Origin: an uncultured Bacteroidales bacterium
GTDB lineage: Bacteria; Bacteroidota; Bacteroidia; Bacteroidales; Paludibacteraceae
DNA length: 32,379 nt
Assembly: GCA_946405045.1 (NCBI GenBank)
Contig: CAMJFV010000001.1
Location: 1-32,379, forward strand
Direction: 5' to 3'
The translations under genes and the position numbers were made by a program. Positions 5,363 through 32,379 of the stretch are shown one piece after another; within the stretch, counting starts at the first letter, position 1, and each line of letters starts with the position of its first letter. The notes under the pieces were generated by a model. It was given only the letters and a program-made list of their open reading frames with translations, was not told where the DNA came from and searched no databases.

Positions 5363-5667
5363 GATTCAACACCTTCATCATCGAAGTGAATATTGTGTTC
5401 ATCGATATACTTTTCGATTGTTTCTCTCATAGAATCATCGAAACGTTTATCGAGTTTATGCTGGGTGTCATCATGAAATGAGACCAATTCATCAATCGAA
5501 ACTCTGAACCAGTAATCCCGATAGTATACCCATTTCACGTTGTTATCCGATGGACAAATGGTTGCAATATGACCTCGAACTTCAACCGTCCATGGTTCAC
5601 ATTTCCAATGATTTGTCACATGCATTCGGTGTTTTACTTCCGAAACAATTTGTGCACCATGCATCAT
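5359..5667 (-). CDS. hypothetical protein (about 102 aa)
   Basis: Track ORF 5359..5853 runs through the thyX terminator hairpin and into thyX. The first plausible start after the hairpin is ATGATG at 5667/5664, 9 nt after GAAAGGG. Confidence 0.6.
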   Translation of the reverse strand: MMHGAQIVSEVKHRMHVTNHWKCEPWTVEVRGHIATICPSDNNVKWVYYRDYWFRVSIDELVSFHDDTQHKLDKRFDDSMRETIEKYIDEHNIHFDDEGVES

Positions 5668-5693
5668 ATTACTCATCCCTTTCAAAAAATTGT

Positions 5694-5719
5694 ATATGGG
5701 GCGGTTTCCCGCCCCATAT
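5694..5719 (-). terminator. intrinsic terminator after thyX
   Basis: 11-bp GC-rich stem atatggggcgg/ccgccccatat with a 4-nt loop, 10 nt after the thyX stop. In gene sense it is followed by ACAATTTTTT. Confidence 0.8.
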
Positions 5720-5729
5720 TTTTTATCTT

Positions 5730-6743
5730 TTATTTCAGTCTTCCTTCGGACGCTGCCACAAGCTGCGGATATGCAATTTCCATCAGTTCTTTGAACTGCG
5801 GATGCGGAGCGCCAGTCGTTCCATGCATTCTCAGATTCAGTTTGTGCTGCCACTGAGATTCGAACGAAGCATTCCAGATGTCAGCTTTGATATCATGCGG
5901 AAGTCTTCCACGAGCAGCCTGCGCAGAAATGCCATGCTTAACGAACCACATGTAGGATTCTTCGTCAGCCTTGGTATCCTTCAGCCATCTCTCGTATGCT
6001 TCCGGATTATTGCGGATCTCCGCCATCGGTTCGATGATCGTGAGCTCTCCACCGAACTTCTCGACATCGTATTTGCAGTATCTTGTCGACTCCATTGCGA
6101 ATGTTTCATCATTACGATGTCTTACCAGTTCATGTGTAACACCGCGATTTGTTGTGAACATTACGATGTGCGGGATAATGTCAACCAGATATCTGTCAAA
6201 GTATCCAGATGCTCTGTAATCGGCGATCAGTTCTTCTTTTGTGAAGAACATGAATGGATTTTTTACGTCATCGGCATTCATGTGGTCTGTATCGATCACA
6301 TCCGGTTCAAACTTCGCATGAAGCTTGTCATAAAGATCTTTATAGACCTCGGGATACTTCTGAGCCAAACACCAGATGAGATCCATGAATCCATCATAGT
6401 AATCCATGTCGATCATCCATTCACCGTCGAGCCATTCCTTGTACCAGTCGTAGAATGCCCGGAAGTTACCAACGGCATAATTGCCGACCATATGGATGAA
6501 ATGCGGTCTTGTAGCCTGGAAGAATTCGAGAAAATCGATATCAGTAATCTTCATGTAAAGATAACCGAATTCGATCATCGCGTCGTGACCAGATTTTACC
6601 AGAGATGCAACAAACTTTGCTGCAGAATCTTCTGTGATTTTGTTTTCAGACTTGTAACAAGTCCGTCCCGCTTTCTCGATTACCTGGTACTGAGTCATGC
6701 CTGTGGTGTCCAACAGGTATGCTGCTTGCTTAATGATTTTCAT
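5730..6743 (-). CDS. thyX: flavin-dependent thymidylate synthase ThyX-like, with a large internal insertion (337 aa)
   Basis: The ThyX signature is present as VRHRNDETFAMESTRY, together with the N-terminal AGRTCYKSE and C-terminal AARGRLPHD blocks. ATG at 6743 is 9 nt after AGGAGG. The track start at 6761 places that AGGAGG at codons 2-3 (ATG AGG AGG), so 6743 is preferred. Confidence 0.85.
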   Translation of the reverse strand: MKIIKQAAYLLDTTGMTQYQVIEKAGRTCYKSENKITEDSAAKFVASLVKSGHDAMIEFGYLYMKITDIDFLEFFQATRPHFIHMVGNYAVGNFRAFYDWYKEWLDGEWMIDMDYYDGFMDLIWCLAQKYPEVYKDLYDKLHAKFEPDVIDTDHMNADDVKNPFMFFTKEELIADYRASGYFDRYLVDIIPHIVMFTTNRGVTHELVRHRNDETFAMESTRYCKYDVEKFGGELTIIEPMAEIRNNPEAYERWLKDTKADEESYMWFVKHGISAQAARGRLPHDIKADIWNASFESQWQHKLNLRMHGTTGAPHPQFKELMEIAYPQLVAASEGRLK

Positions 6744-6744
6744 A

Positions 6745-6981
6745 TCAATCGTCCTCCTCATATTCTGATTCCAGATGACTCAGGAATTCAGATTCTTCCT
6801 GGTCAAGCCATTTTGCGATACCTTCGACACACTTCTTCGAAGAAATGGATCTGTTGGGGACTGTGCAGCTTGCCCCATCCTCACCATAGTAAGCACAGTT
6901 CCTGCAATCAACATGATTGATGAACATTGCCAATTGCTCAGTAGGCATCGCATGAAGTGCCGCGCGATTTGTGCGTTTCAT
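6745..6981 (-). CDS. small Cys-rich protein (78 aa)
   Basis: ATGA overlap with the upstream stop at 6978-6981. Cys pattern HVDCRNCAYYGEDGASCTVPNRSISSKKC. Confidence 0.6.
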   Translation of the reverse strand: MKRTNRAALHAMPTEQLAMFINHVDCRNCAYYGEDGASCTVPNRSISSKKCVEGIAKWLDQEESEFLSHLESEYEEDD

Positions 6982-7235
6982 TTTTCGGTTTCCTCTTTTC
7001 GTTCCGTTTTCGCAGGTGTGAGAGGTCCAACGCACTCGACGGCAACATCATAGGCGTTTTTGAAGTTGGCTTCTGTGCCGATGGACTCATCTTTATACTC
7101 AGAGCTCATATCAGCAAACCGAACGGTCCATCCATTCGGTCCTGCATCAATACGTACGGACAGACCACATTCATCCACAAAACGTTCGGTACGTTCAATT
7201 TCAGATACCGGCATCATGCCGAAAAATCTTTTCAT
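6978..7235 (-). CDS. hypothetical protein (85 aa)
   Basis: ATG at 7235 is 9 nt after AAGGAGG. Confidence 0.65.
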   Translation of the reverse strand: MKRFFGMMPVSEIERTERFVDECGLSVRIDAGPNGWTVRFADMSSEYKDESIGTEANFKNAYDVAVECVGPLTPAKTERKEETEK

Positions 7236-7270
7236 TTGATTTGTCCTCCTTATATTTGAATTTAGATATA

Positions 7271-7789
7271 TTAATCTGTGTGAATATCATTGTTCAAGAA
7301 GTCTGTCACACAATTGTTGAGATACCATGTGAGATATTGTGCCGTTTCATAAAGCTGTTCATACTTCGTGTCCTGCGTTTTGATTTTGGAGAACCATCCC
7401 CACATCGAATCGAAGTCATACCGACCGGTCTTGACATCGTTGTCATATGGCAGAAATGTTCTGAGTGTAATGTCTCTAAATGCAAACCATTTTCGATTAA
7501 TACTATCATCAAAGACATTTCTAACATAGAACCGAACAACGGTAATGTCACCATTGTTATCAATCCTTGTTTCCATCTCGCGCAGTTCCATCTTGAAGTT
7601 GGTCAAATCAATTTCGGGAAGATCCATGTACTTGAACGGAGCTTTGTCACGGTTCTTGAGTGCTTTCCACATCCGTTCCATCAGACCGATGAATGAATGA
7701 TGCAATGTTGCGACATCACGATATGAAATGTCGATTGAGCGACCACTCGCATCACCGGTATTCTTTCCCAAAACAATTTTCTTATCCAT
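7271..7789 (-). CDS. hypothetical protein (172 aa)
   Basis: Track ORF extends to 7909 inside the upstream gene. ATG at 7789 follows AGGAGGAAAGAAA and overlaps the upstream stop by 8 nt. Confidence 0.7.
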   Translation of the reverse strand: MDKKIVLGKNTGDASGRSIDISYRDVATLHHSFIGLMERMWKALKNRDKAPFKYMDLPEIDLTNFKMELREMETRIDNNGDITVVRFYVRNVFDDSINRKWFAFRDITLRTFLPYDNDVKTGRYDFDSMWGWFSKIKTQDTKYEQLYETAQYLTWYLNNCVTDFLNNDIHTD

Positions 7790-8078
7790 TTTCTTTCCTC
7801 CTGTATTTGGTGCATTTCCAAACGCATTTCGCAGAAATGCGTTCATCATCAATTTCAGATTTCTTGATCCGAACTTGGATAAGCAAATCCTTGTTACCAA
7901 GGATTGCAAAATCCATCAATTCCTGATCAACATGATAAGCTTCGAAGACCGCCGTGTATACTCCACCGAGTGTCAACTCATCTTCAGCAATGTTATCAGC
8001 TTTCTTGATTGTCTGTAATGTTTCATTATCAAGAAACCGAATGCGGAAAACATCACCGCGATAATGATATTCATTCAT
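7782..8078 (-). CDS. hypothetical protein (98 aa)
   Basis: The ATG at 8087 abuts GGAGG with no spacer. The next ATG, at 8078, is 9 nt after it. Confidence 0.65.
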   Translation of the reverse strand: MNEYHYRGDVFRIRFLDNETLQTIKKADNIAEDELTLGGVYTAVFEAYHVDQELMDFAILGNKDLLIQVRIKKSEIDDERISAKCVWKCTKYRRKENG

Positions 8079-8083
8079 ATTAT

Positions 8084-8731
8084 TCATCCTCCAAAGTTTG
8101 TATAAGGTTTTGTCAAACCCCTGCGTGTAAAGAGCCTGTGGAAATCATTGATACTGATCCTCATTTCGCCAACGCGGATATACTCAATTTTTAGTTCCCT
8201 GAGATATTTGTTTGTATACGGAAACCAACAACCGGGATATGCATCATTCAGTGCAATAGCATCGATCCAATAGAAACCATCTTCTGTTAGCTGATGATCT
8301 CCATCAGCTTCCCAGTCCTTGTAATTGTTTCGCATCTCCATCCAACCAATCTCGAGAGCACCTTCCGACAGAGTTGGAACATACCTCACTCGATCAATCA
8401 ATTGCATCCAATGCGGAAACAATATGACCCTCTTGCATTTCGGACATGTTACTGATGGATATCGATTGTACGGGAAATGATTGATCAACCTGGCATTCAG
8501 TGTTTGAAACATATCGATACTGTTCAATTTGTCGCGAAGACTAGCATCACTGATCGGTGAAGTCTGATGACAGTAGATACACTTCATTGTGAACCGATGC
8601 CTTTCGAATGGCGTCATATAGCTGACATAGGGTGGATACCTGACCGGATCACGACCAGGTATCACTTTCGTGCGGAGTCTTTCAATATCCAGATACACCA
8701 AGATTTTATCCATTTGATTTTGATTATCCAT
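8084..8731 (-). CDS. hypothetical protein with CxxC...CxxC zinc-ribbon-like motif (215 aa)
   Basis: ATG at 8731 is 5 nt after GAGGTGA. Cys pairs CIYCHQ ... CPKCKRV. Confidence 0.7.
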   Translation of the reverse strand: MDNQNQMDKILVYLDIERLRTKVIPGRDPVRYPPYVSYMTPFERHRFTMKCIYCHQTSPISDASLRDKLNSIDMFQTLNARLINHFPYNRYPSVTCPKCKRVILFPHWMQLIDRVRYVPTLSEGALEIGWMEMRNNYKDWEADGDHQLTEDGFYWIDAIALNDAYPGCWFPYTNKYLRELKIEYIRVGEMRISINDFHRLFTRRGLTKPYTNFGG

Positions 8732-8741
8732 CACGATCACC

Positions 8742-8909
8742 TCACACAGCAAACTGAGTTCCATGTTCCATCTGATGAAACTCGACTATAGCTTCGTCTT
8801 CCGTAATATCAATTTTATCAATCACGAAATCCGAATCAAGTCCATTAATGAACTCAGCAGTTGCTTGATTGATATCATTGTGATCATCCTTTTTGATCAC
8901 GTGTGTCAT
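8742..8909 (-). CDS. small acidic hypothetical protein (55 aa)
   Basis: ATG at 8909 is preceded by GAAAGGAGG. It overlaps the end of the upstream gene by 26 nt. Confidence 0.5.
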   Translation of the reverse strand: MTHVIKKDDHNDINQATAEFINGLDSDFVIDKIDITEDEAIVEFHQMEHGTQFAV

Positions 8910-9177
8910 TATGGACCTCCTTTCGACATTCGTCATCACCGATATCATTTTTCATCGGTGGTATTGGATGTGGTATTTCTATCAGCGGTTTGCATATGTT
9001 ATCTTTAATAAGCTTTTCGACAAATTCATGAATTCTTTGTAAAAGAACCAATCTAGAATTTAAGTCCGAATCATTTGTGACTGGAATTTCATCCATTTGT
9101 GATTTTATGTCACATAGAGCCTTTAATGTATTAATGTAATCATCGTGTTCATCATGTTTTGCAGATGTCAAATCCAT
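8884..9177 (-). CDS. hypothetical protein (97 aa)
   Basis: ATG at 9177 is preceded by AAAGGAGA. Confidence 0.6.
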   Translation of the reverse strand: MDLTSAKHDEHDDYINTLKALCDIKSQMDEIPVTNDSDLNSRLVLLQRIHEFVEKLIKDNICKPLIEIPHPIPPMKNDIGDDECRKEVHNDTRDQKG

Positions 9178-9535
9178 AAAATGTCACATCTCCTTTTGGC
9201 GATATGCCGATTCTGGCTTCGGTTGCCACATCTGGATGTTGTGCAACATCAACATGTGCCTGTACAGGATATCCCCAATTCTCACCACCAGGCAGTCTGT
9301 CGGAAGGATGATCGATTTCACCGCGCCATTTTCCGTCGTTGATTAATTTATCACGATGCTTTTCAAAGTCAGCAACGGCAGCTGATATAAATTCCGGAGA
9401 ATAGTATCGACCATTCCGGTTCTTATATCTGATTTTTATAACTTTCTTGCGAATAAAGCTTTTATATTCGTAGCCATGGATGAGACCATGTCTTTTCGCA
9501 AGTCTGCTAAGCTTTTTACGTTTCTTCCAGTTCAT
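9152..9535 (-). CDS. hypothetical protein, paralog family B (basic N-terminal module) member (127 aa)
   Basis: ATGA overlap at 9532-9535, with GGAGGTGA 6 nt upstream. N-terminus MNWKKRKKLSRLAKRHGLIHGYEYKSF matches the family B module. Confidence 0.75.
   Translation of the reverse strand: MNWKKRKKLSRLAKRHGLIHGYEYKSFIRKKVIKIRYKNRNGRYYSPEFISAAVADFEKHRDKLINDGKWRGEIDHPSDRLPGGENWGYPVQAHVDVAQHPDVATEARIGISPKGDVTFYGFDICKT
9509..9535 (-). repeat. 27-nt perfect direct repeat, copy 1 (family B leader MNWKKRKKL)
   Basis: aagctttttacgtttcttccagttcat is identical to 9850-9876. The flanking bases differ on both sides. Confidence 0.9.
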
Positions 9536-9876
9536 TCGTCGTCACCTCCGATATCTACTTTACCAGCTAGCTGCGGTCTATAGAATTCGTCGACTGTACA
9601 CCGGATCTGAGCCCTTTTCAGTTTCGCCCGACGCAAGCGTTTGTACCTCTTTACGTTGTATGCCCATGGTGGCATCTTCAAATCATCGTCGCGCACAGGA
9701 CGAACACAATACTGACATGAATTGATCAGAGCGGACGCTGATCCGCCGTAATAACAGATCCAGTCAAAGCATTTACACTGGACATAGATTTTGTACAGAT
9801 GCGGCCGTTTCGCAATTGTCCCTCGGAGTGGCTTCTTAGCTAACTTCCGAAGCTTTTTACGTTTCTTCCAGTTCAT
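9532..9876 (-). CDS. hypothetical protein, paralog family B member, Cys-rich variant (114 aa)
   Basis: Start chosen at 9876 (MNWKKRKKLRKLAK) by paralogy, with AGAGGA 8 nt upstream. Contains CKCFDWIC...CQYC. Confidence 0.7.
   Translation of the reverse strand: MNWKKRKKLRKLAKKPLRGTIAKRPHLYKIYVQCKCFDWICYYGGSASALINSCQYCVRPVRDDDLKMPPWAYNVKRYKRLRRAKLKRAQIRCTVDEFYRPQLAGKVDIGGDDE
9850..9876 (-). repeat. 27-nt perfect direct repeat, copy 2 (family B leader MNWKKRKKL)
   Basis: Identical to 9509-9535. A diverged third version lies at about 13514-13541. Confidence 0.9.
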
Positions 9877-10426
9877 CTTCATCATCCTCTGTATCGTCAT
9901 CATCGTCATCCGGCAGACTTGAAATGAGATCATCGAGCTTTTCCATCATACTCATAATCATCTGATGAAAATCTTTTTTGAAATAGATGTCTGAATCCGG
10001 CGGCAGAATGTTCCGAAGGCACTTTGATACGGCATCACCAAAGTATGTAACCCCTTCGAGCATTTCACCAGCTAGCGGATCTTTTCCGCTTGAGTCTACC
10101 GAAACCATATTATCTTTGATTCTGATGAACATCGAGACATCTGGTATCAGTTTCGGAAATGCGATGTGTATCGTGTGAGTTGAACGAAAGATGATGATAA
10201 TCGGTTTATCATGATCTTCAATATGATTTTTCGTACAGATCATAGCACCTTGTACGAACGACTCACCAGTGTCCGATTTAATGGCAATCTCCCCTTCATT
10301 AAAAGTAGAGACATCAACGACGCATTCGTCAAGATACTCTTTGGGAACACAATACATGCGCAAACATTGCAGCACATTGTAAAAGATCATCTGAGACAGA
10401 CATTCATCCGAGATTCTATATTTCAT
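9857..10426 (-). CDS. hypothetical protein with poly-acidic C-terminal tail (189 aa)
   Basis: ATG is preceded by CAGGAGGTAAAAGA. C-terminus is LPDDDDDDTEDDEDELEET. Confidence 0.75.
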   Translation of the reverse strand: MKYRISDECLSQMIFYNVLQCLRMYCVPKEYLDECVVDVSTFNEGEIAIKSDTGESFVQGAMICTKNHIEDHDKPIIIIFRSTHTIHIAFPKLIPDVSMFIRIKDNMVSVDSSGKDPLAGEMLEGVTYFGDAVSKCLRNILPPDSDIYFKKDFHQMIMSMMEKLDDLISSLPDDDDDDTEDDEDELEET

Positions 10427-19060: not shown

Positions 19061-19565
19061 GATTGTGATCCTCCTCGTCTTTTATAATTTTTAAACCGCC
19101 ATCAGGCGATAGCTCGAATGGTATGAATTCAATACCATGACCTTTGGCCCACTCCCAGAGTCCATGAAACATCTTTTCTGCAGATTCTCTAGTAAGATCA
19201 CGGTGTCCGTAATATTGTGACAATAATGGAATCGGTAGACCCACTAGAGAGAACATAATGCTGACAACTTCCTTCAGTTGCTCAAGCTCTTCACGAAGGG
19301 CAACGTTCTCTTGCTCGAGAGCAATCAGCCGTTCAGCAAATTCTGTCAATGGAAGTCCCGGTCGAGTAATCGGGACTTTGATACCAGACTCTTTTTGTGT
19401 TGTGATGTTTTCTTTCCAGTAATTGGGATCGTTTGGATCATCACAAATTTTCTGTATTGAAACTGAAACTGGTGTTGATGATGAGTTTGGAAACGGGGTA
19501 TCCCGTTTGGTGGTATTGTTGAAATCGCAACCACCACTCAGACGGAATCCATCAATCTCAATCAT
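19038..19565 (-). CDS. hypothetical protein (175 aa)
   Basis: ATG is preceded by TAGGAGGGATACTGT. Central coiled-coil stretch LIALEQENVALREELEQLKE. Confidence 0.7.
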   Translation of the reverse strand: MIEIDGFRLSGGCDFNNTTKRDTPFPNSSSTPVSVSIQKICDDPNDPNYWKENITTQKESGIKVPITRPGLPLTEFAERLIALEQENVALREELEQLKEVVSIMFSLVGLPIPLLSQYYGHRDLTRESAEKMFHGLWEWAKGHGIEFIPFELSPDGGLKIIKDEEDHNHDTEGTD

Positions 19566-22467: not shown

Positions 22468-22746
22468 TTATTTCGACTCTTCATACTTTTTCTTGGTAGC
22501 AAGACCACCACGAATATGTTTCACTGACCAGTTATAGTCAAGCTGTTTCAACAGCTTCTTGTACTTACGTTTTCCACCACCTTTTACAAATGGAAAATAT
22601 TCGTGGATGAAAACATGTAAGGTTGATTTTGACAGTCCATATACATGTGCTGCATGACGAATCGTGCATTTTGTCTGAATGATAAATTCACATGCATTGA
22701 TGAAACTATCCATGTATTTGTTGATAACGCTGTACCGAGAGCTCAT
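22468..22746 (-). CDS. spoIIID: SpoIIID-like helix-turn-helix transcriptional regulator (92 aa)
   Basis: ATG is preceded by TAAGGAGTGATACAGA. FIIQTKCTIRHAAHVYGLSKSTLHVFIHEYFP and LDYNWSVKHIRGGLATKKKYEE parallel B. subtilis SpoIIID (YIVETKKTVRVIAKEFGVSKSTVHKDL... and LDYHKSIRHLRGGEATKLKYKK, from memory). The length is also the same, about 92 aa. Confidence 0.85.
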   Translation of the reverse strand: MSSRYSVINKYMDSFINACEFIIQTKCTIRHAAHVYGLSKSTLHVFIHEYFPFVKGGGKRKYKKLLKQLDYNWSVKHIRGGLATKKKYEESK

Positions 22747-24300: not shown

Positions 24301-26199
24301 TTAAAATGGTTTGAACAGATTATCCGGAACTTCATCCGGTGTGTAGATAGGAATGTTCAGCTTCTTTGCTCTGGATACTTTATCGGACTGGAAGTTCTTG
24401 TCCTTTACGATCAATGCTTTCAAATCGTTTGTGAAACCACCGACCTCATAGCCGTTGTCAACAAGCTGTTTTTCAAGGTCCTTATCACGGAATCCTGTGA
24501 AGCATACGCGACCAGCATAAGCTCCCCAAGGAGTTGTTGGTTTCAGCTTCTCCGGAATCCAAGACATCAATGATTGAATCTCTTCTTTATTCCGAAGATA
24601 TCCGTCAAAGATCTTTTGAATTTTGATCTTGCCAACCGATGGAATGTAACCCGCATTCAGAATCATCTCGGGAAAACTTCCATCGATCATTGCATGAATA
24701 ATCGGTTCATCACCCAGAACACGAATAACTGCAGACCAGGTTTTTTCATCCGTATCATTGAACGGTAATGCTCCAAGGAATCTTGCAAGGGTTGCTTCAG
24801 ACAGAGCTTTGTCGACGGACTTCACCATGTTGTCATATGAGGTATATCCGAAACCTTCTGTTTGAGCAATGCAATCGTCCCATTTTCTTAGATCATATAG
24901 ATCTTCGATTTTAGTAACGAATTCATTGTCATACAACTTCGTCAGAACTCCTTCACCAAGTCCAACCATTCTCATCTTTTCAGCATGACGAATAATCGCA
25001 CCAAGTTTCAGTCCTTTACATTCAGGATTCTTACATCTGACAATGACGCCTGAATTGTAATCCAGAGCTGCACCACATATCGGACAATTTGTCGGCAGCG
25101 GTATTGGATAATCACCATCGTGATACGATTCCAGAAAATACGGTACGATGTTATACATGATTCGTATCGTATCACCATGTCGAAGTTCCATGGATCTGAC
25201 GCGATCGAGTGTTGACAACGTTGCATGATCAACTGATATTTTGTCGTCACAGAATTTTACTGCATCAAATATCGCGACCGGTGTGATACGTCCCTGTTTA
25301 CCAAACTGATATTCAATCGATCGAAGTGTCGTCTCTTTCACGTCATTCAGAATCTTGATTGCAACTTCAAGTTCCGGATCAACAAATATCGTAGATGGAT
25401 CGGTTGATGATTCGGAATTTATCGACGCAACAACACCATCAATCGAAAATGTCTGATCAAAGATTTTTGTCGTAGCGGATTCAGCCAATCGATCTTTGAT
25501 GAATGCTCCGATCGAATTGAAGTCGTCTGCAAACACATGTTCACAGATTTCATTCAACAGTTTCGGAATATACTGTTTGCCGTCAACGTATCCTCTCAAC
25601 GGCACCAATGTGATGAATTGTGCCATTTCAATATTTCTGGATGTGATTGTTGCAGACACAACATCACGTGGACGTTTATATGTGAGATTTAACGCATAAT
25701 GCAGAAACTGTTCATGAGACAAAATTGCCTCGAACTTCATTGCAGTTGTACCAGGTCGTGCAAATGATTTGACGACTTCCAAATGGTGTTGAAATACTTC
25801 TGTCACGTCAACAGATTCACCATTATCATAGTCACCTCTTGTGAAGAATCGACCGGTTGCGAAATCTAGTGCAACTGAGCATCCATCGAATTTCGGTTGC
25901 AATATGATTTTGCATTGATCAAGTGCAGGATGTGACTTCATGTTTGTGTCAAGCCATTTCTTATATGTCTTTTGACCAGGTCTCCAGGGTTCTGTCACAC
26001 CATAAGCCTTTGGTAAAGTTCCAACAATGTCATTTACATCAGCAGATTGTTTCTGTCGATTGAATGGTCGTGCGGACTCCCCACCATTCTCTTTCAAATA
26101 TTCCTCGAGTAATGTATCATACTCTTCATCAGAAATCAATGGATGACCCTGATCATACGCTTTGATATATTCATCGAGCTGTTCTTTTGTGATTGCCAT
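24301..26199 (-). CDS. ligA: NAD-dependent DNA ligase LigA (632 aa)
   Basis: Full LigA layout:
- Ia-like N-terminus YDQGHPLISDEEYDTLLEE
- adenylation lysine motif QPKFDGCSV (KxDG)
- Cys4 zinc finger CPICGA...CKNPEC
- C-terminal BRCT-like GRVCFTGFRDKDLEKQLVDNGYEV. Confidence 0.93.
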   Translation of the reverse strand: MAITKEQLDEYIKAYDQGHPLISDEEYDTLLEEYLKENGGESARPFNRQKQSADVNDIVGTLPKAYGVTEPWRPGQKTYKKWLDTNMKSHPALDQCKIILQPKFDGCSVALDFATGRFFTRGDYDNGESVDVTEVFQHHLEVVKSFARPGTTAMKFEAILSHEQFLHYALNLTYKRPRDVVSATITSRNIEMAQFITLVPLRGYVDGKQYIPKLLNEICEHVFADDFNSIGAFIKDRLAESATTKIFDQTFSIDGVVASINSESSTDPSTIFVDPELEVAIKILNDVKETTLRSIEYQFGKQGRITPVAIFDAVKFCDDKISVDHATLSTLDRVRSMELRHGDTIRIMYNIVPYFLESYHDGDYPIPLPTNCPICGAALDYNSGVIVRCKNPECKGLKLGAIIRHAEKMRMVGLGEGVLTKLYDNEFVTKIEDLYDLRKWDDCIAQTEGFGYTSYDNMVKSVDKALSEATLARFLGALPFNDTDEKTWSAVIRVLGDEPIIHAMIDGSFPEMILNAGYIPSVGKIKIQKIFDGYLRNKEEIQSLMSWIPEKLKPTTPWGAYAGRVCFTGFRDKDLEKQLVDNGYEVGGFTNDLKALIVKDKNFQSDKVSRAKKLNIPIYTPDEVPDNLFKPF

Positions 26200-26226: not shown

Positions 26227-26250
26227 TGGGTGGGGCCAACGCCCCACCCA
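26227..26250 (-). terminator. intrinsic terminator upstream of ligA
   Basis: 10-bp stem tgggtggggc/gccccaccca with a 4-nt loop, 6 nt after the stop at 26257. In gene sense it is followed by the T-rich CTTCTATTATTTTTAT. Confidence 0.75.
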
Positions 26251-26583: not shown

Positions 26584-28311
26584 TTATTTCATACTGTTTG
26601 TCTTTTTGGTATTGATTTGATCTGCAGCTACTCGTGTGGACCCGTAATATTTCTCCCAAGATGCGTTATGTTTACCAGCACTCTTGTGATTATGTTCGAT
26701 ATCACCGTTGTCTTGCTGCATCATATTGCTATAAACAGTATTGCATACTGCAGCGATTTCCTTGATATCACTCATGAGACACTTGCTGAACTTCTGACAT
26801 GTTTCAACACACGCCTTGATACCACGATAAGCAATATCGTTTTTCGATGCATTTTTGTTATACGTGCTTCCAGCCGTATTGCGCTGATCGGAAATAACAT
26901 TGATATTGTTATTGATCGCGACCATCATGTGTTTCCATATATCAGCATGCATCGATAGCTGATTGATAAAATTGTCAGATCTTCCAGATTCAGCCTTATC
27001 GTCTCCCATATATCCAGTCAGATAATCAAACATTGTTTGACGTTGGGTCTCATCAGGAGGAACTGGCATTTTTGTCTTAATCAAATCAAGTTTACTGAGA
27101 ATCTGTATGCCATTTGGAACATTTCGTGAACAAGTGACGACATTTGCATCAGACATGAATGGAGCCATTGCAGGTTGTTTGGATGCAAACGTTGCAACAT
27201 CATATGTTTTTATAGGGAGCCCATGTACATCTTTAAGAAGCGTAGCAACTGATGCATTATGCAGATTTCCAGTGCACAGATACCACTTCCAAATCAGCGG
27301 ATTGATACGTGCCTTATTTCCAGACATAACCGGTTCGAAGTACAGATGTATACCCTGTTGGAAAATCGCACCATATCCATGTTCCTTAATGAATGCACGT
27401 GCATTGTTCATGCGGTTCTTTGTTTGGTTAAACATCTTACGGAACTTCTCAACCAGATTGAGAATCAGGTTGATAGCTTTACCGATCAACGTACCAAGCA
27501 GCTTAAACGGATTGATTGATGTATTTGGATCCCACTTACTGTCAGCCTGACCGAATGATTCTTGATAGAATGCACATTCCATGATTGGAGTCACATATGG
27601 ACTGGTACGATCATTATGTTCATAGGCTTCCAGAATAATATTGGAAGTCACCTCGATCAATTCGAATGTCTCCTGCAGCTCTGAGACATCTTTGTCAAGT
27701 TCTTTAACACTGTCTTCAAAGCTTTGGTCAGAGTCCTTGTCAACTGAAACACGGATATGGCATTTGTCAACCGCGGTTTGCATCGCAGTCTCTTCATCCA
27801 TACCCATCGCAAGAAGTTCTTCGTATTCCTTCTTGACATCGGGATCCTTTGGCTCATATTTCTCACCGGTCAGTTCCGACTTCGCAAACAGCAGCTGCTC
27901 CATATGGAAACGTTCTTCATCACCGATATCCGCATACAGACGTCTGAGAACATCAGTGTTTGTTTCCTTTGCAGCTTCAAGGTATTCACCCAGAGCATCT
28001 GCTTCAGAAGCCATCAGCTTCATCAATGTGTCGACATCTTTCTGATCATAATCATTCTGAACATCTGAAGTGTCGGTACCGAAGGACCCCAACTCAACAT
28101 CGTTGGGGTCCATGTTTTCGGTTTCATTGAATTTGTCCTTGTCCTCATCAGACATACGTCCTTCCAGATATCCAGGAAGTTCTTCCGGAGATTGATCCTT
28201 ATCGTCATTCTCCAGATCAAGATCACCGATGGTGATGTCTTTATCATCACTCAGCTGATCTTCTTCTTCCTGATAAAATCCAGGACGATGAAAACGAGTA
28301 AAATCGCTCAT
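26584..28311 (-). CDS. large hypothetical protein with acidic N-terminal region and a ferritin-like ExxH helix pair (575 aa)
   Basis: ATG at 28311 is preceded by AAAGGAGGAATACGT. The first ~110 aa are rich in D/E. SEADALGEYLEAAKE...DIGDEERFHMEQLLFAK resembles a half ferritin/rubrerythrin motif (weak call). Confidence 0.8.
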   Translation of the reverse strand: MSDFTRFHRPGFYQEEEDQLSDDKDITIGDLDLENDDKDQSPEELPGYLEGRMSDEDKDKFNETENMDPNDVELGSFGTDTSDVQNDYDQKDVDTLMKLMASEADALGEYLEAAKETNTDVLRRLYADIGDEERFHMEQLLFAKSELTGEKYEPKDPDVKKEYEELLAMGMDEETAMQTAVDKCHIRVSVDKDSDQSFEDSVKELDKDVSELQETFELIEVTSNIILEAYEHNDRTSPYVTPIMECAFYQESFGQADSKWDPNTSINPFKLLGTLIGKAINLILNLVEKFRKMFNQTKNRMNNARAFIKEHGYGAIFQQGIHLYFEPVMSGNKARINPLIWKWYLCTGNLHNASVATLLKDVHGLPIKTYDVATFASKQPAMAPFMSDANVVTCSRNVPNGIQILSKLDLIKTKMPVPPDETQRQTMFDYLTGYMGDDKAESGRSDNFINQLSMHADIWKHMMVAINNNINVISDQRNTAGSTYNKNASKNDIAYRGIKACVETCQKFSKCLMSDIKEIAAVCNTVYSNMMQQDNGDIEHNHKSAGKHNASWEKYYGSTRVAADQINTKKTNSMK

Positions 28312-28324
28312 ACGTATTCCTCCT

Positions 28325-31042
28325 TTATTTACGTTGAGACTTCTCGAATTGTTCAATTCGTTGAAGTTTCCGTTTTGCTTTAGCTAGCTGGTCTTGGGTT
28401 AACTTACCAGAAGCAATCTGTTGTTTCAGCTGTTCCTTAGCAAGTTGACGTTGTTTCGCTGCATTTGCATCAAGTTGTTTTTGACGTTTTTCGTATTGCT
28501 GTTGTGCATACTCACCACGTTTTTGATGTGCAAACAACATTTCATCTTCATCTCGAGCCTTTTCGATCAAATCAGGTTTTCCTCTAGCAACGCGATCTTT
28601 ATTTAAACGATCAACATTCCGTGAGTTCTCTTGTGCGCCTTTTCTTAATGAACGAAGCATTGTGTCGCCTTTGGCATATCTGTTATGCAATTCACTATAA
28701 GCATCCGCATCATATTCAACAGGATCCAAATCATGATCCCTGTTCTTAATTTTTTTCCAATCTTCATATGGCATAGCATCGATATGTGCTTTTGCTTCGT
28801 CACGTCGTCGCAAACCTTCCGAACCAGATTTCCATAACGGTTTATCACGTTCAAAATCATATACCTTATCCGTCATTTGAGAAGCGTGTCCTTCTTCATG
28901 TTTATATGTTGCATTTGAATAAGCCGGTTTCTTTTGGATATCTTTTGGTGTCATATTAATGCTGTCTGTATCCATTTGACCATATCGTTTCACTTTACCA
29001 TCAACGGTTGTTTGATATGCTGAATCATAATGTTGTGTTACGTCATGTGGATTTATTGTGAATGGTACACGTTTCTTTTGTCCAGGATTGTTTTTATCAT
29101 CAATATCCGTCAAAATAGTTTCTGTTTTCGGATCATAACCGTTTTCACGAAGGAATTTGTTCATACGGTTACGTTCCTTATTAGATCCAATTTTTCCAGC
29201 GGATATACGTTTACCAGGACGATTCGGATCTTCGATTGTGTTGGTTTTAGGATCATACTTATGTTTCTTCAAATATTCGTCATATGGGCCGTAAGCTGCT
29301 TCCTGAACAACTTCATCGTCATATGAATCCAACAGAATTCCGAATTCATTGATCGCTTCGTCATGTGCGTCCGGGTCATCGAATAATGCATTATGATATT
29401 CGGATACGTAGAACAAAGAATCTCCGAGTTGAACAAACCAGTCACACTCTTCACATTCACAATATTCTTCAATTATATCGGAATCATCGAGAGCATATTC
29501 AACGACCATGTCTTCGAACAAGTCATCATCGTCGGAATCATCGAGTGCGTATTCAACAACCATGTCTTCGAACGAATCTTCATACCAGTTGAACATCTCA
29601 TATATTGCATCATTCATCAAAATATCATCAGCAAGGTTCTCCATTGTATATTCCTCACTGAATACGATTCCAAACAATTCTGGGATCATTGCAACGAATT
29701 CAGCAACAGCAGCCTTCGTCCACGGAGCAGCTTTTTCGATTGCACGACAGAACTCACAACGCGCTTCATACTCACTCTTTGTCTTAGCAAGAATCTTGTT
29801 AAGTCTAGCCAATTGCTTATCGATATTAACAGAGTTTTTTCTTGCATCAAGACATCTCTGATATACAGTATCGACATACTGTATACGTTTCGATGGATCC
29901 ATTTGAAGAAGCTTTTCTTTTCGATTAGCGCTCAGAGTTGTATATGGATTCTGGAAACTGTTGACAACCTGCTCAACCGAATTTAAATTTGACATGATTT
30001 CTTTCATTGTACCAAATTTAATCGGAATACCATTTGCAGCAGCATACGACTTTATTTGCCGGATTTGTTTCACGATCTGCTGAGCCGCTGACGAAATTTT
30101 GTCAACCGCTGACCCAGACATGTTCATATATTTCGTAAGAGTTGCATCATCGATATCTCCATCATGAAGGTGCAGATATGTCTTCAGATCATTCAGAGCT
30201 TTGATATTTTTATCGAGGTTCTGTGCAGCTACAGTTTTTGCAGTATTTATGGTGCTCTCACGTAACATAGATGCCTGCATTCCGTATAGATGCATCAATG
30301 CTCTAGTATATACTGCAGCTCCATTCTTTCTTACGGCAGCAGCATCAGCTTCTAACTCAAACAAATATTTGTCATGAGCAGTATTCAGTTTCTTTCCAGC
30401 AGGAGAATTTACATAATCCTTGATCCAGTCTGTTGTGGCATTCAGACCGATATTAAGTTTATTATTCACAAGACCCATCTTACGTTGTATAGCCGATCCT
30501 ATAGATCGTGTTATTTTTCCACCAGGTAACTGGTATCCGGCCATATCAACAGCTTCGCCACTGCCACGCTTTGCCATTCTCTCTTGATGAGAATGTTGAA
30601 CTTCATGGTCGATCATTGCTTTGAACTCATCTCTACTGAGTCTTGTGAGAATGTTTTTTGGTACATTAATATTTCCACCATTTTCAGCAAGACCAAGCTT
30701 AGATTGTATATCACCGGTGGCTTTCATTGCAGGCAATGTCTTTGAAAGAATCTGTGAGTAAATCTTCTTGGCTCGAATCTTCAGATTGCTGTCGTTTTTG
30801 TCAATATGAGTTCCGACAGCGGTCCCCATCATACTCAAAATATTAACGACATCGTCTTCATTCATCAAGTTTATTTTGATCGGATATTTTTCTTTTGTCT
30901 CAGGATCTTCAACGATGATCGATTGTGACCATTTGTCATATCCGATCGCTTTCAGATTTCGTTTAGAGGTTCTATTCATTCGACCTCGTGCTGTCTCTTG
31001 ATAAAAAATACCGCCACCAAATCTTGCAGGTATGTCAGACAT
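28325..31042 (-). CDS. very large multidomain protein with two zincin-like HExxH...E-x-[ED]-A-D modules, acidic tandem repeat and basic coiled-coil tail (905 aa)
   Basis: ATG is preceded by TAAGGAGGGATATT.
- HEVQH (aa 146-150) with FELEADAAA (aa 228-236)
- HEEGH (aa 715-719, nt 28886-28900) with VEYDADAYS (aa 775-783)
- 18-aa tandem repeat at aa 491-526
- K/Q/R-rich C-terminus aa 840-905. Confidence 0.85.
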   Translation of the reverse strand: MSDIPARFGGGIFYQETARGRMNRTSKRNLKAIGYDKWSQSIIVEDPETKEKYPIKINLMNEDDVVNILSMMGTAVGTHIDKNDSNLKIRAKKIYSQILSKTLPAMKATGDIQSKLGLAENGGNINVPKNILTRLSRDEFKAMIDHEVQHSHQERMAKRGSGEAVDMAGYQLPGGKITRSIGSAIQRKMGLVNNKLNIGLNATTDWIKDYVNSPAGKKLNTAHDKYLFELEADAAAVRKNGAAVYTRALMHLYGMQASMLRESTINTAKTVAAQNLDKNIKALNDLKTYLHLHDGDIDDATLTKYMNMSGSAVDKISSAAQQIVKQIRQIKSYAAANGIPIKFGTMKEIMSNLNSVEQVVNSFQNPYTTLSANRKEKLLQMDPSKRIQYVDTVYQRCLDARKNSVNIDKQLARLNKILAKTKSEYEARCEFCRAIEKAAPWTKAAVAEFVAMIPELFGIVFSEEYTMENLADDILMNDAIYEMFNWYEDSFEDMVVEYALDDSDDDDLFEDMVVEYALDDSDIIEEYCECEECDWFVQLGDSLFYVSEYHNALFDDPDAHDEAINEFGILLDSYDDEVVQEAAYGPYDEYLKKHKYDPKTNTIEDPNRPGKRISAGKIGSNKERNRMNKFLRENGYDPKTETILTDIDDKNNPGQKKRVPFTINPHDVTQHYDSAYQTTVDGKVKRYGQMDTDSINMTPKDIQKKPAYSNATYKHEEGHASQMTDKVYDFERDKPLWKSGSEGLRRRDEAKAHIDAMPYEDWKKIKNRDHDLDPVEYDADAYSELHNRYAKGDTMLRSLRKGAQENSRNVDRLNKDRVARGKPDLIEKARDEDEMLFAHQKRGEYAQQQYEKRQKQLDANAAKQRQLAKEQLKQQIASGKLTQDQLAKAKRKLQRIEQFEKSQRK
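29465..29572 (-). repeat. in-frame 54-nt tandem duplication inside the 905-aa ORF
   Basis: Units 29519-29572 and 29465-29518 encode FEDMVVEYALDDSDDDDL and FEDMVVEYALDDSDIIEE. The first ~42 nt of the units differ at about 4 positions. Confidence 0.9.
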
Positions 31043-32345
31043 AATATCCCTCCTTATAATGATATTCAGAAAATCTTGTAGGAATTGTAAAACTCTCTTT
31101 CACAGACTTTGGTTTACTGGCCTCGCCGTCATGAATCATTTTACATTTCGTCATGATCCATTCCTGGAAGTTTTTGATTGGCGTGCCATAATCAATATCG
31201 GCATCGGTATAATCCCATACACCATAATTGACATCTTGGTTATGGTATTCCGCTGACACTTCAGCAACATACTCAAATATGTCAGTCAGTTTATCAAATA
31301 CCTTCTTGCGTTCGTAACCCCATTCATCCACAACACGTTTGAATGCTTGTTCGATATAAACAAACTTTCCATCAAGCGGTACAACACAAATTGTATGGGT
31401 ATTGAGTGTCTTTGTGTTTTTTGTATCGGTGAAATTCATGTAGTATTTTTTGTATGTTACTCCGAAGGCTTCGAGGTATCCAGCTTCATACTCGACCATG
31501 TCATAGCAGTTACCACCACCGGCCTGATCAACTGTTTCACCAGAATGGAATACCCAATACTTATCGTAATCTGCATCAGATACATTTCCAGTCATGAGTC
31601 TTCCATCTTTAATCAAACCATACTTGAATTTCTTGATGTCAACACAAAGATCATCGATTACACGTTCCGGTGAGTAATCAAACTTGGTTGCTTTCTTCAA
31701 GACTTTTGGTTTGACAACCCAGTGCCATTTGTATGTGAAGTAATTACGGGTATCCTTTTGACCCTTGGATGTAGGAACAACGGATTTCCGTTTTGCATCC
31801 GCAATCTGATCAACACGGATAACACCATACAGTTTCATCCGAACAGGTTCCATGATCCAAACTTCTCTAGTGACATTCGCGTCATACACGAGTTTGCCAT
31901 TCACGAGTTGTTTGTTGGTCTTGTGTTTGTATTCCTTCCAAGGTTTCTCCGGAACGTATACATACATTTTGTCGAATGTGTCTGGTGATTGTCTTTGAAG
32001 ATTCACTGTGATACCATTCAATGCACCTTCGATCGATGTGGAGAAACATATACGCGGAGTTGTATTGTCTTCGAATCCAGTGTCTTCCGGATTGTACGGA
32101 TCCAGATAGTCGGGAACGCGGGGCTTCCATACTTGCCCATCGATATGTTTATCCGGGGACACATGGAATACCAGATCATCAGAATACGGATTTACACCGT
32201 TCTTGAGATCTTGAAAGGCTCCTTCTTGGACATTATATTGGACACAACCATATGTTTTACCACATGATTCACATGTGTAGATTGGCTCACCTTTCATTGC
32301 GATAGAAATCTTTCCACCGCAATCACACTTCTTCATGACAGCCAT
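31035..32345 (-). CDS. large protein with N-terminal zinc ribbon and C-terminal papain/transglutaminase-like Cys-His motif (436 aa or longer)
   Basis: CDCGG...CESCG near the N-terminus. GGGNCYDMVEYEAGYLEAFG ... NTHTICVVPLDGKFVYIEQ has the Cys...His...Asp/Glu spacing of papain-fold enzymes. The reading frame stays open upstream to the window edge (32379), so the true start may lie outside the window. Confidence 0.8.
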   Translation of the reverse strand: MAVMKKCDCGGKISIAMKGEPIYTCESCGKTYGCVQYNVQEGAFQDLKNGVNPYSDDLVFHVSPDKHIDGQVWKPRVPDYLDPYNPEDTGFEDNTTPRICFSTSIEGALNGITVNLQRQSPDTFDKMYVYVPEKPWKEYKHKTNKQLVNGKLVYDANVTREVWIMEPVRMKLYGVIRVDQIADAKRKSVVPTSKGQKDTRNYFTYKWHWVVKPKVLKKATKFDYSPERVIDDLCVDIKKFKYGLIKDGRLMTGNVSDADYDKYWVFHSGETVDQAGGGNCYDMVEYEAGYLEAFGVTYKKYYMNFTDTKNTKTLNTHTICVVPLDGKFVYIEQAFKRVVDEWGYERKKVFDKLTDIFEYVAEVSAEYHNQDVNYGVWDYTDADIDYGTPIKNFQEWIMTKCKMIHDGEASKPKSVKESFTIPTRFSEYHYKEGYYV

Positions 32346-32379
32346 ACCCTCGTCATTGAATCCAAGGACATCGTCTTTA

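Follow-up and report, generated by a model that had tools for sequence, protein, structure and literature searches.

The 32,379-nt window analysed here (contig CAMJFV010000001.1 of assembly GCA_946405045.1, filed under an uncultured Bacteroidales bacterium) contains the gene orfB, a 905-aa open reading frame (ORF) at 28325-31042 on the minus strand whose product carries two candidate zincin-like metallopeptidase modules. The ORF called in the original prediction is real and lies on the minus strand; plus-strand translation of the same interval meets stops throughout and yields no ORF. A 98%-identical copy of the protein (P0001) is encoded on the 51-kb Logan contig L001.

Upstream of orfB lies orfA, of which the window holds the C-terminal part (31035-32379, minus strand); the gene continues past the window end and is complete in L001, where it encodes 951 aa (7153-10008). 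Downstream lies orfC (26584-28311, minus strand), a 575-aa ORF. The two junctions are just as the original prediction had described them, with an 8-nt overlap between orfA and orfB (ATGTCTGA) and a 13-nt gap between orfB and orfC, and an AAGGAGG box precedes the starts of both orfB and orfC. Inspection of the DNA places the Shine-Dalgarno box of orfB (AAGGAGGG) at 31048-31055 (minus strand), where it is read in the orfA frame as the residues K-E-G of the orfA C-terminus, and that of orfC (AAAGGAGG) at 28319-28326 (minus strand), where it overlaps the orfB stop codon. After a 92-aa ORF that follows orfC, a strong terminator-like hairpin with a 10-bp stem and eight G-C pairs (26227-26250, minus strand) closes the transcription unit of the array, and beyond it lies the gene for an NAD-dependent DNA ligase (24301-26199).

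All motifs and internal repeats listed in the original prediction are found at the residues it gave: HEVQH at aa 146 and FELEADAAA at 228, HEEGH at 715 and VEYDADAYS at 775, and further EYCECEECDW at 526, an acidic 18-aa repeat at 491 and 509, and YDPKT repeats at 595 and 635. Composition-matched shuffling of the orfB protein gives an expectation of 0.028 HExxH motifs per sequence; of 20,000 shuffles, 0.02% contain at least two, and none contains two that are each followed by E..AD 30-125 aa downstream. The motif pairs of orfB are therefore not due to chance.

The C-terminal HEEGH module

An exhaustive HMMER search with orfB retrieved 78 metagenomic cluster representatives, all of them aligned to aa ~500-830 and none to aa 1-500. 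This search defines the family set and replaces a word-index search that proved weak: queried with full-length orfB it returned two proteins and missed the 82%-identical P0003, and an alignment of the N-terminal half returned none. From the family, 67 domain copies with 25-54% identity to orfB were extracted and aligned. In this alignment H715, E716, G718, H719, E776, D780 and Y782 are invariant and, together with R658 and T642, make up nine invariant or near-invariant residues. The core of the module (module 2), delimited with the help of the representatives, the conserved residues and a structural model, spans aa 616-800 (28643-29197, minus strand). Within it HEEGH occupies aa 715-719 (28886-28900, minus strand), with its H, E, G and H unchanged in every copy, and the second motif, HDLDPVEYDADAY, occupies aa 770-782 (28697-28735, minus strand) and supplies E776-x3-D780 and Y782. 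The resulting consensus is KHEEGH … HDxxPxEYxADxY, with a variable spacer of 40-110 aa between the motifs.

An AlphaFold2 model built from the family alignment reached a predicted local distance difference test score (pLDDT) of 81.2 and a predicted template modelling score of 0.75. It contains, in model numbering, a helix (52-64), three strands (73-79, 87-94 and 126-128), the HExxH helix (137-154), an insert and a helix (205-217) that carries E207, D211 and Y213, the counterparts of E776, D780 and Y782. The predicted order of elements is thus a helix, a beta-hairpin formed by the second YDPKT unit, a third strand, the HEEGH helix, a variable insert and the Glu helix. This order matches the core of the zincin-like metallopeptidase (MPTase) domains of polyvalent proteins, which consists of an N-terminal helix, a three-stranded sheet, an HExxH helix and a Glu helix (PMC5512222). 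Ahead of the core, a first helix and beta-hairpin YDPKT unit (aa 584-615; 29198-29293, minus strand; H17-24/E33-35/E43-45 of the model) forms an optional N-terminal extension of the domain that is absent from shorter family members. It is preceded by a conserved acidic leader, EECDWFVQLGD…LLDSYDDE (aa 531-577; 29312-29452, minus strand), kept in P0003-P0014 and P0063.

The invariant residues suggest how the domain might work. H715, H719 and E776 would act as Zn2+ ligands and E716 as the general base, while D780, at position i+4 from E776, would orient a histidine ligand and Y782 would help to stabilise the transition state; the sheet would be three-stranded and built of YDPKT helix-hairpin units. 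An E-x-x-x-D downstream of HExxH is the classical gluzincin signature, in which it provides the third ligand and a histidine-orienting Asp, as in thermolysin and neprilysin. Module 2 resembles these gluzincins of MEROPS clan MA(E) in the placement of E776-x3-D780 on a helix past HExxH, but its domain is much smaller and gives no fold-level match to them.

Database searches place the module outside the annotated families. Scans of 34 family members against Pfam, PHROGs and NCBIfam found no recurrent family, only scattered sub-threshold matches, among them the zincin families Zn_peptidase_2 (two members, best E=0.002), Tox-MPTase4 and SprT. Neither the family profile, nor a second profile, nor the whole orfB protein matched any PDB sequence. 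A Foldseek search of the model against PDB and BFVD found nothing significant; its best PDB match is a zincin, MtfA (3khi), at E=2.7 and a template modelling score of 0.21-0.24. The original prediction had proposed profile and Foldseek searches as a check of the zincin fold, and the outcome is divided, with zincin profiles matching below threshold and Foldseek giving no significant match. Its zincin reading is supported for both HExxH sites, in module 2 by the residues invariant in 67 copies and the element order of the model, and in module 1, the N-terminal module, by zincin-family matches that are all sub-threshold. Motif invariance and the order of secondary-structure elements are what suggest a zincin here. 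The HEEGH/YDPKT domain is a probable metallopeptidase family missing from curated libraries. It escapes sequence searches of Pfam, PHROGs, NCBIfam and PDB, but the 67-copy alignment with its nine conserved residues now makes a definition possible.

The same data bear on the idea that orfB has a conventional structural role, for instance as a tape measure, and that its HExxH motifs arose by chance or are inactive. Long helical regions and a basic coiled-coil tail would suit such a protein. However, PHROGs and Pfam contain no tape-measure or other structural match for orfB, a check the original prediction had suggested, and assign the whole protein to no family; moreover, all 67 divergent copies keep HExGH and the E, D and Y unchanged, and shuffling does not reproduce the motif pair. 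We regard this explanation as extremely improbable.

The N-terminal module and the remainder of orfB

Module 1 (aa 20-260; 30263-30985, minus strand) is M48-like and rare. Its putative zinc-binding and catalytic motif HEVQH (aa 146-150; 30593-30607, minus strand) is HEIQH in P0002, and its putative Glu-helix HDKYLFELEADA (aa 223-234; 30341-30376, minus strand) carries E229-x3-D233, in register with HDLDPVEYDADA of module 2; E229 and D233 are both conserved in P0002. Three carriers of the module were found: orfB, P0001 and P0002, the last 61% identical. Scans of IMG/VR and of JGI metagenomes for further relatives of the N-terminal half found none. Syntenic relatives (L004, L005 and L008) lack module 1 at the same position, which makes it an insertion in the window lineage.

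Scanned alone, aa 1-300 of orfB match Pfam Peptidase_M48 over aa 117-253 at 18.7 bits (E=0.0016), the best Pfam match of the protein and below the cut-off of 20.3 bits. All Pfam matches of module 1 in P0002 are to zincin families and are likewise sub-threshold: SprT-like (0.0018), PhageMetallopep (0.0042), M48 (0.0043; 17.3 bits) and M56 (0.012; 15.2 bits, cut-off 31). With the hidden Markov model of module 2, the two real N-terminal halves take the top two places among 10,002 sequences, at 17.0 and 12.1 bits against 11.5 bits for the best of 10,000 shuffles, and hhalign brings IN.PK … HExxH … HDxxxxExxADA of the two modules into register, weakly (E=0.025). A YDPKT-like unit, NLKAIGYDKWSQSIIVED…KYPIKINL, also stands at the orfB N-terminus. 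The AlphaFold2 model of the N-terminal half, built from a two-sequence alignment, places HEVQH within a predicted helix (137-160) at low confidence (pLDDT 45.6); the model is unreliable, which deprives its Foldseek matches, generic helical bundles, of meaning, and they were discarded. From the sequence comparisons we interpret module 1 as a distant, strongly diverged relative of module 2 that would share its layout through H146, H150, E229 and D233. We infer that both domains are active peptidases; they are predicted to act on partner modules or host proteins, alongside the neighbouring effector enzymes.

In M48 proteases (HtpX, Ste24, Oma1) and the soluble 'minigluzincins', a helix that bears E-x-x-A-D follows HExxH at a distance of ~80 aa. 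Module 1 shares this spacing and scores best in Pfam on M48, yet it stays below the gathering threshold and shows no membrane topology, and module 2 has no M48 signal. The label 'M48/M56-type', given to both modules in the original prediction, therefore suits module 1, and weakly (18.7 versus 20.3 bits), but not module 2, which matches no curated family. Would orfB be a genuine M48/M56 membrane protease of the HtpX, Ste24 or BlaR1 type? In its favour, the M48 match of module 1 covers both motif regions, P0002 scores on M48 and M56, and the protein has one hydrophobic segment. This segment, AAVAEFVAMIPELFGIVFS (aa 444-462; 29657-29713, minus strand), is the only strongly hydrophobic one in orfB, with a Kyte-Doolittle 19-residue mean of 1.74; every residue of it recurs in P0002 (61% identical), and it could be a membrane-inserting or a buried helix. 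Yet it lies ~200 aa past the Glu helix of module 1, alone and with no multi-pass topology; the scores remain under the curated cut-offs, module 2 lacks any M48 or M56 signal, and the genetic context is a phage effector array. A membrane protease is accordingly a very unlikely identity for orfB.

That a single chain should hold two such modules had been called unusual. This view did not survive comparison, as ~8% of polyvalent proteins with a zincin-like metallopeptidase domain carry more than one copy (PMC5512222), and four relatives of orfB also have two HExxH modules.

Between the modules, residues 261-470 (29633-30262, minus strand), which include the hydrophobic segment, are modelled as all-helical, with low confidence. 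The acidic 18-aa tandem duplication, FEDMVVEYALDDSD… (29465-29583, minus strand), consists of two 52-nt copies with 88% DNA identity at a spacing of 54 nt and is a single copy in P0002. The Cys cluster EYCECEECDW, present at aa 526 as described, is not conserved: it reads CEYEEC in the 98%-identical relative, and the family retains EECD[WM]F only. For this lack of conservation it was ruled out as a zinc or other metal site. At the other end of the protein, the conserved 45-aa basic tail KQRQLxKEQLKQQIxSGKLxxxQxxKAxxKxxRIxxFE (aa 860-905; 28328-28465, minus strand) occurs in 21 of the 81 family proteins, is kept even between very divergent members and in fused relatives stands ahead of the next module. 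It could serve as a docking or targeting peptide.

Fission and fusion of the array

The neighbours of orfB add further enzymatic modules. Full-length orfA in L001 combines a DUF6582-like N-terminus (weak match), a papain-fold Gln_amidase domain (24.4 bits, cut-off 24.1), a GNAT domain (55 bits), a zinc ribbon and a phrog_10766 domain; DUF6582 gave no matches when searched for in the literature. The original prediction had described this neighbour as a 436-aa protein with a zinc ribbon and a papain-like fold. Both domains are there, but the size was cut by the window end. OrfC has an acidic N-terminus (net charge -23 in 100 aa) and a ferritin-like motif, EADAxxEY … EERFHxEQL, with a Pfam Coat_F match at E=0.02, and modules like it are joined to zincin modules in many relatives.

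What stands between orfA and orfC varies. This slot holds the HEEGH module only in L004, L005 and L008, the M48-like module only, fused to orfC, in L002 (P0002), and both modules in the window and L001. In giant relatives of 1,450-2,370 aa the HEEGH module is joined to orfA-like (papain-fold deamidase, GNAT) and orfC-like (ferritin-like) modules. The order orfA-like, HEEGH, orfC-like is seen in P0007 (2,368 aa), P0010 and P0011, other orders occur in P0016, P0065, P0050, P0060 and P0079, and P0009 is a further fused relative. The window thus holds a split polyvalent array, whose modules undergo fusion and fission with GNAT, papain-fold-deamidase and ferritin-like modules. A given module may be encoded as a cistron of its own or as part of a giant ORF in which the internal ribosome-binding sites are retained. 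The polyvalent character proposed in the original prediction is supported by these phage-encoded relatives, with their varying module orders.

Polyvalent proteins with MPTase domains include DdrB of phage P1, the virion RNA polymerase of N4 and ArdC (Iyer, Burroughs, Anand, de Souza & Aravind 2017, PMC5512222). The modelled domain of orfB has in common with theirs an HExxH helix, a later Glu helix, a variable insert and a helix with a three-stranded sheet, and here too the domain comes in one to several copies amid unrelated enzymatic domains (GNAT, peptidases) in shuffled architectures. It differs in that module 2 has no sequence-detectable link to the modelled zincin families, the 12 clades of that paper lying outside the comparison, and bears its own signature, KHEEGH … HDxxPxEYxADxY with YDPKT helix-hairpin units. 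Two further differences concern the array, which in the orfB type is often split into cistrons and keeps ribosome-binding sites even inside fused ORFs, and the source of the family, so far found in metagenomic contigs only, the longest of them of jumbo-phage size. OrfB therefore exemplifies a strategy already familiar from phages, the novel elements being its domain family, the phage clade that carries it, and fission and fusion with retained ribosome-binding sites.

This retention is most evident in a peptide, KEG[YF], of which 8 of 12 occurrences lie at module junctions; 3.6 occurrences anywhere are expected by chance. Such a distribution could point to proteolytic sites, and one alternative holds that the metallopeptidase domains mainly cut their own polyprotein at conserved junctions (KEG[YF] … x-R-F) and so free the effector modules. 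Iyer et al. proposed self-processing for the metallopeptidase domains of polyvalent proteins (PMC5512222), and the orfA-orfC slot always holds at least one zincin. At the DNA level, however, KEG[YF] is the in-frame reading of AAGGAGGG, a ribosome-binding-site footprint or internal start and not necessarily a cleavage site, and we dropped it as evidence for cleavage. P0007 (L003, 10001-17107) keeps AAGGAGGG at all three of its junctions (aa 914, 1428 and 1777), each time followed at a distance of 7-8 nt by ATG or TTG in frame, even though the gene has AAG and GAG as its minor codons. This suggests a recent read-through fusion, internal translation initiation, or both. As the peptide is a translated Shine-Dalgarno box, self-processing at the junctions is not required, and the window encodes the modules as distinct cistrons, for which no cleavage is needed. 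Self-processing as the main role is thus improbable. More generally, a conserved 'linker' peptide in a giant protein may reflect a Shine-Dalgarno box read in frame and is not necessarily a protease site.

The phage clade and possible delivery of the array

Family members lie on contigs of 210-266 kb and in a 249-kb IMG/VR viral genome, which places the array in an uncultured jumbo-phage clade. The locus is conserved in the order p457, a ~90-aa gene, the array, a ~90-aa gene and the NAD ligase gene. The 457-aa protein p457 (phrog_21946; L001, 5370-6743) is 62-94% identical among relatives and stands ahead of the variable array in all six other lineages where it was found (L004, L006, L008, L009, L013 and L014). 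Its only match in a cultured phage is gp009 of the Bacillus jumbo phage BpSp, at 21% identity. A tblastn search of orfB against 50,697 GenBank phage records gave no match, nor did a megablast search of 22 kb against GenBank phages, and PHROG scans of the neighbouring genes in L001 and L003 yielded almost no informative match.

The host is probably a Firmicute, as the window encodes a homologue of the SpoIIID-family regulators (22468-22746, minus strand, identified via L001 18368-18646) and its AAGGAGG ribosome-binding sites are strong. Near the SpoIIID homologue lie genes for NADAR, two metallophosphoesterases, one of them SbcD-like, and a ThyX-like protein. A 456-aa plus-strand ORF (5550-6920) runs antisense to the ThyX-like gene (5730-6761, minus strand), the other identified window genes being on the minus strand; a tblastn search of this ORF against phages gave no match, and it is probably spurious for that reason. 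On the 212-kb contig L012, a Tad2-like (anti-Thoeris) gene (19266-19520) lies 8 kb from a solo HEEGH-family gene.

Together these lines lead us to favour, with some reserve, the reading of orfB as the peptidase cistron of a split 'polyvalent' effector array of an uncultured jumbo-phage clade, equipped with two gluzincin-type domains. How its product would reach the host is a more delicate matter. In L010 the gene for a head maturation protease (phrog_3014, 4e-10) is followed by that for a 1,569-aa HEEGH protein (family domain at 105 bits), then by a 205-aa gene and by that for the major head protein (phrog_20655, 1e-8). In L012 the solo HEEGH protein adjoins homologues of the L010 protease (6e-24; faint Peptidase_S80) and of a virion structural protein (1e-26). 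With two distant relatives next to a prohead protease and the major head protein, the array products may be packaged in the head and delivered with the DNA, a step to which we give slightly less than an even chance.

Several results weigh against the favoured reading. On the structural side, Foldseek provides no significant match for module 2, modules 1 and 2 are weakly connected (E about 0.03-0.07), and the model of the N-terminal half is unreliable. On the genomic side, the window lineage has primase, NAD ligase, SbcD-like, ThyX-like and phosphoesterase genes on either side of the array, no head gene could be recognised within ±10 kb of it, and BpSp gp009, the weak p457 homologue (21%), is not among the 23 proteins found in BpSp virions. 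The genomic observations fit an alternative in which the array encodes unpackaged host-takeover or anti-defence enzymes, expressed from the incoming genome alongside replication genes, with a peptidase that cleaves host or defence proteins inside the cell. Every close relative has the same replication and nucleotide-metabolism neighbours (p457, array, NAD ligase, phosphoesterase, SbcD-like, ThyX-like, primase), and the Tad2-like gene near the solo member would also suit this account. Against it stands the direct contact of two distant members with the prohead protease, major head protein and virion structural protein genes, and jumbo-phage genes are scattered, which makes neighbourhood weak evidence either way. 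We consider unpackaged enzymes a rather unlikely solution, though the foremost competitor.

The same head-gene neighbours might instead indicate a head-assembly factor: an internal protein of core or scaffold type, or else an auxiliary peptidase that would cooperate with the prohead serine protease in maturation. It would then resemble the uncharacterised zincin conserved in phiKZ-like jumbo phages. The L010 member occupies the classical scaffold or core slot between prohead protease and major head protein, the L012 member adjoins the same protease, and a conserved zincin-like metallopeptidase has been predicted to act in the maturation of group 1 jumbo phages (PMC7824862). On the other hand, toxin-type enzymes (papain-fold glutamine deamidase, GNAT) accompany the module or are fused to it, the module differs greatly among relatives in copy number, order and fusion partners, unlike core morphogenetic genes, and the array of the window lineage lies outside any head module. 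An assembly role is therefore less probable still.

Returning to the effector array, a bolder and tentative version would take HEEGH/YDPKT as a new zincin family that marks a hypervariable effector operon, prone to fusion and fission and specific to this clade. Its products would be made both as giant fusions and as separate proteins through internal ribosome-binding sites, loaded into the head next to the prohead protease, and injected into the host cell as a multi-enzyme mixture of deamidase, acetyltransferase, two peptidases and a ferritin-like protein; we doubt that all of these parts will hold together. In large phages, the internal proteins of T4 and the inner-body proteins of phiKZ are internal head or ejected proteins that are large, acidic or basic, and variable. 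The array products are likewise large, acidic or basic, and variable, and two relatives stand beside prohead protease and major head protein genes, but there is no homology to these proteins and the window locus lies among replication genes. The logic of polyvalent proteins extends to an uncultured jumbo-phage clade, in which orfA, orfB and orfC are testable candidates for packaged or early anti-host enzymes.

L010, the 73.7-kb IMG/VR contig with the head-module family member, also carries at 855-1592 a fragment of a phage multisubunit RNA polymerase beta subunit (phrog_3233, 1.6e-43), which connects some members of the family with jumbo phages that have an RNA polymerase of their own.

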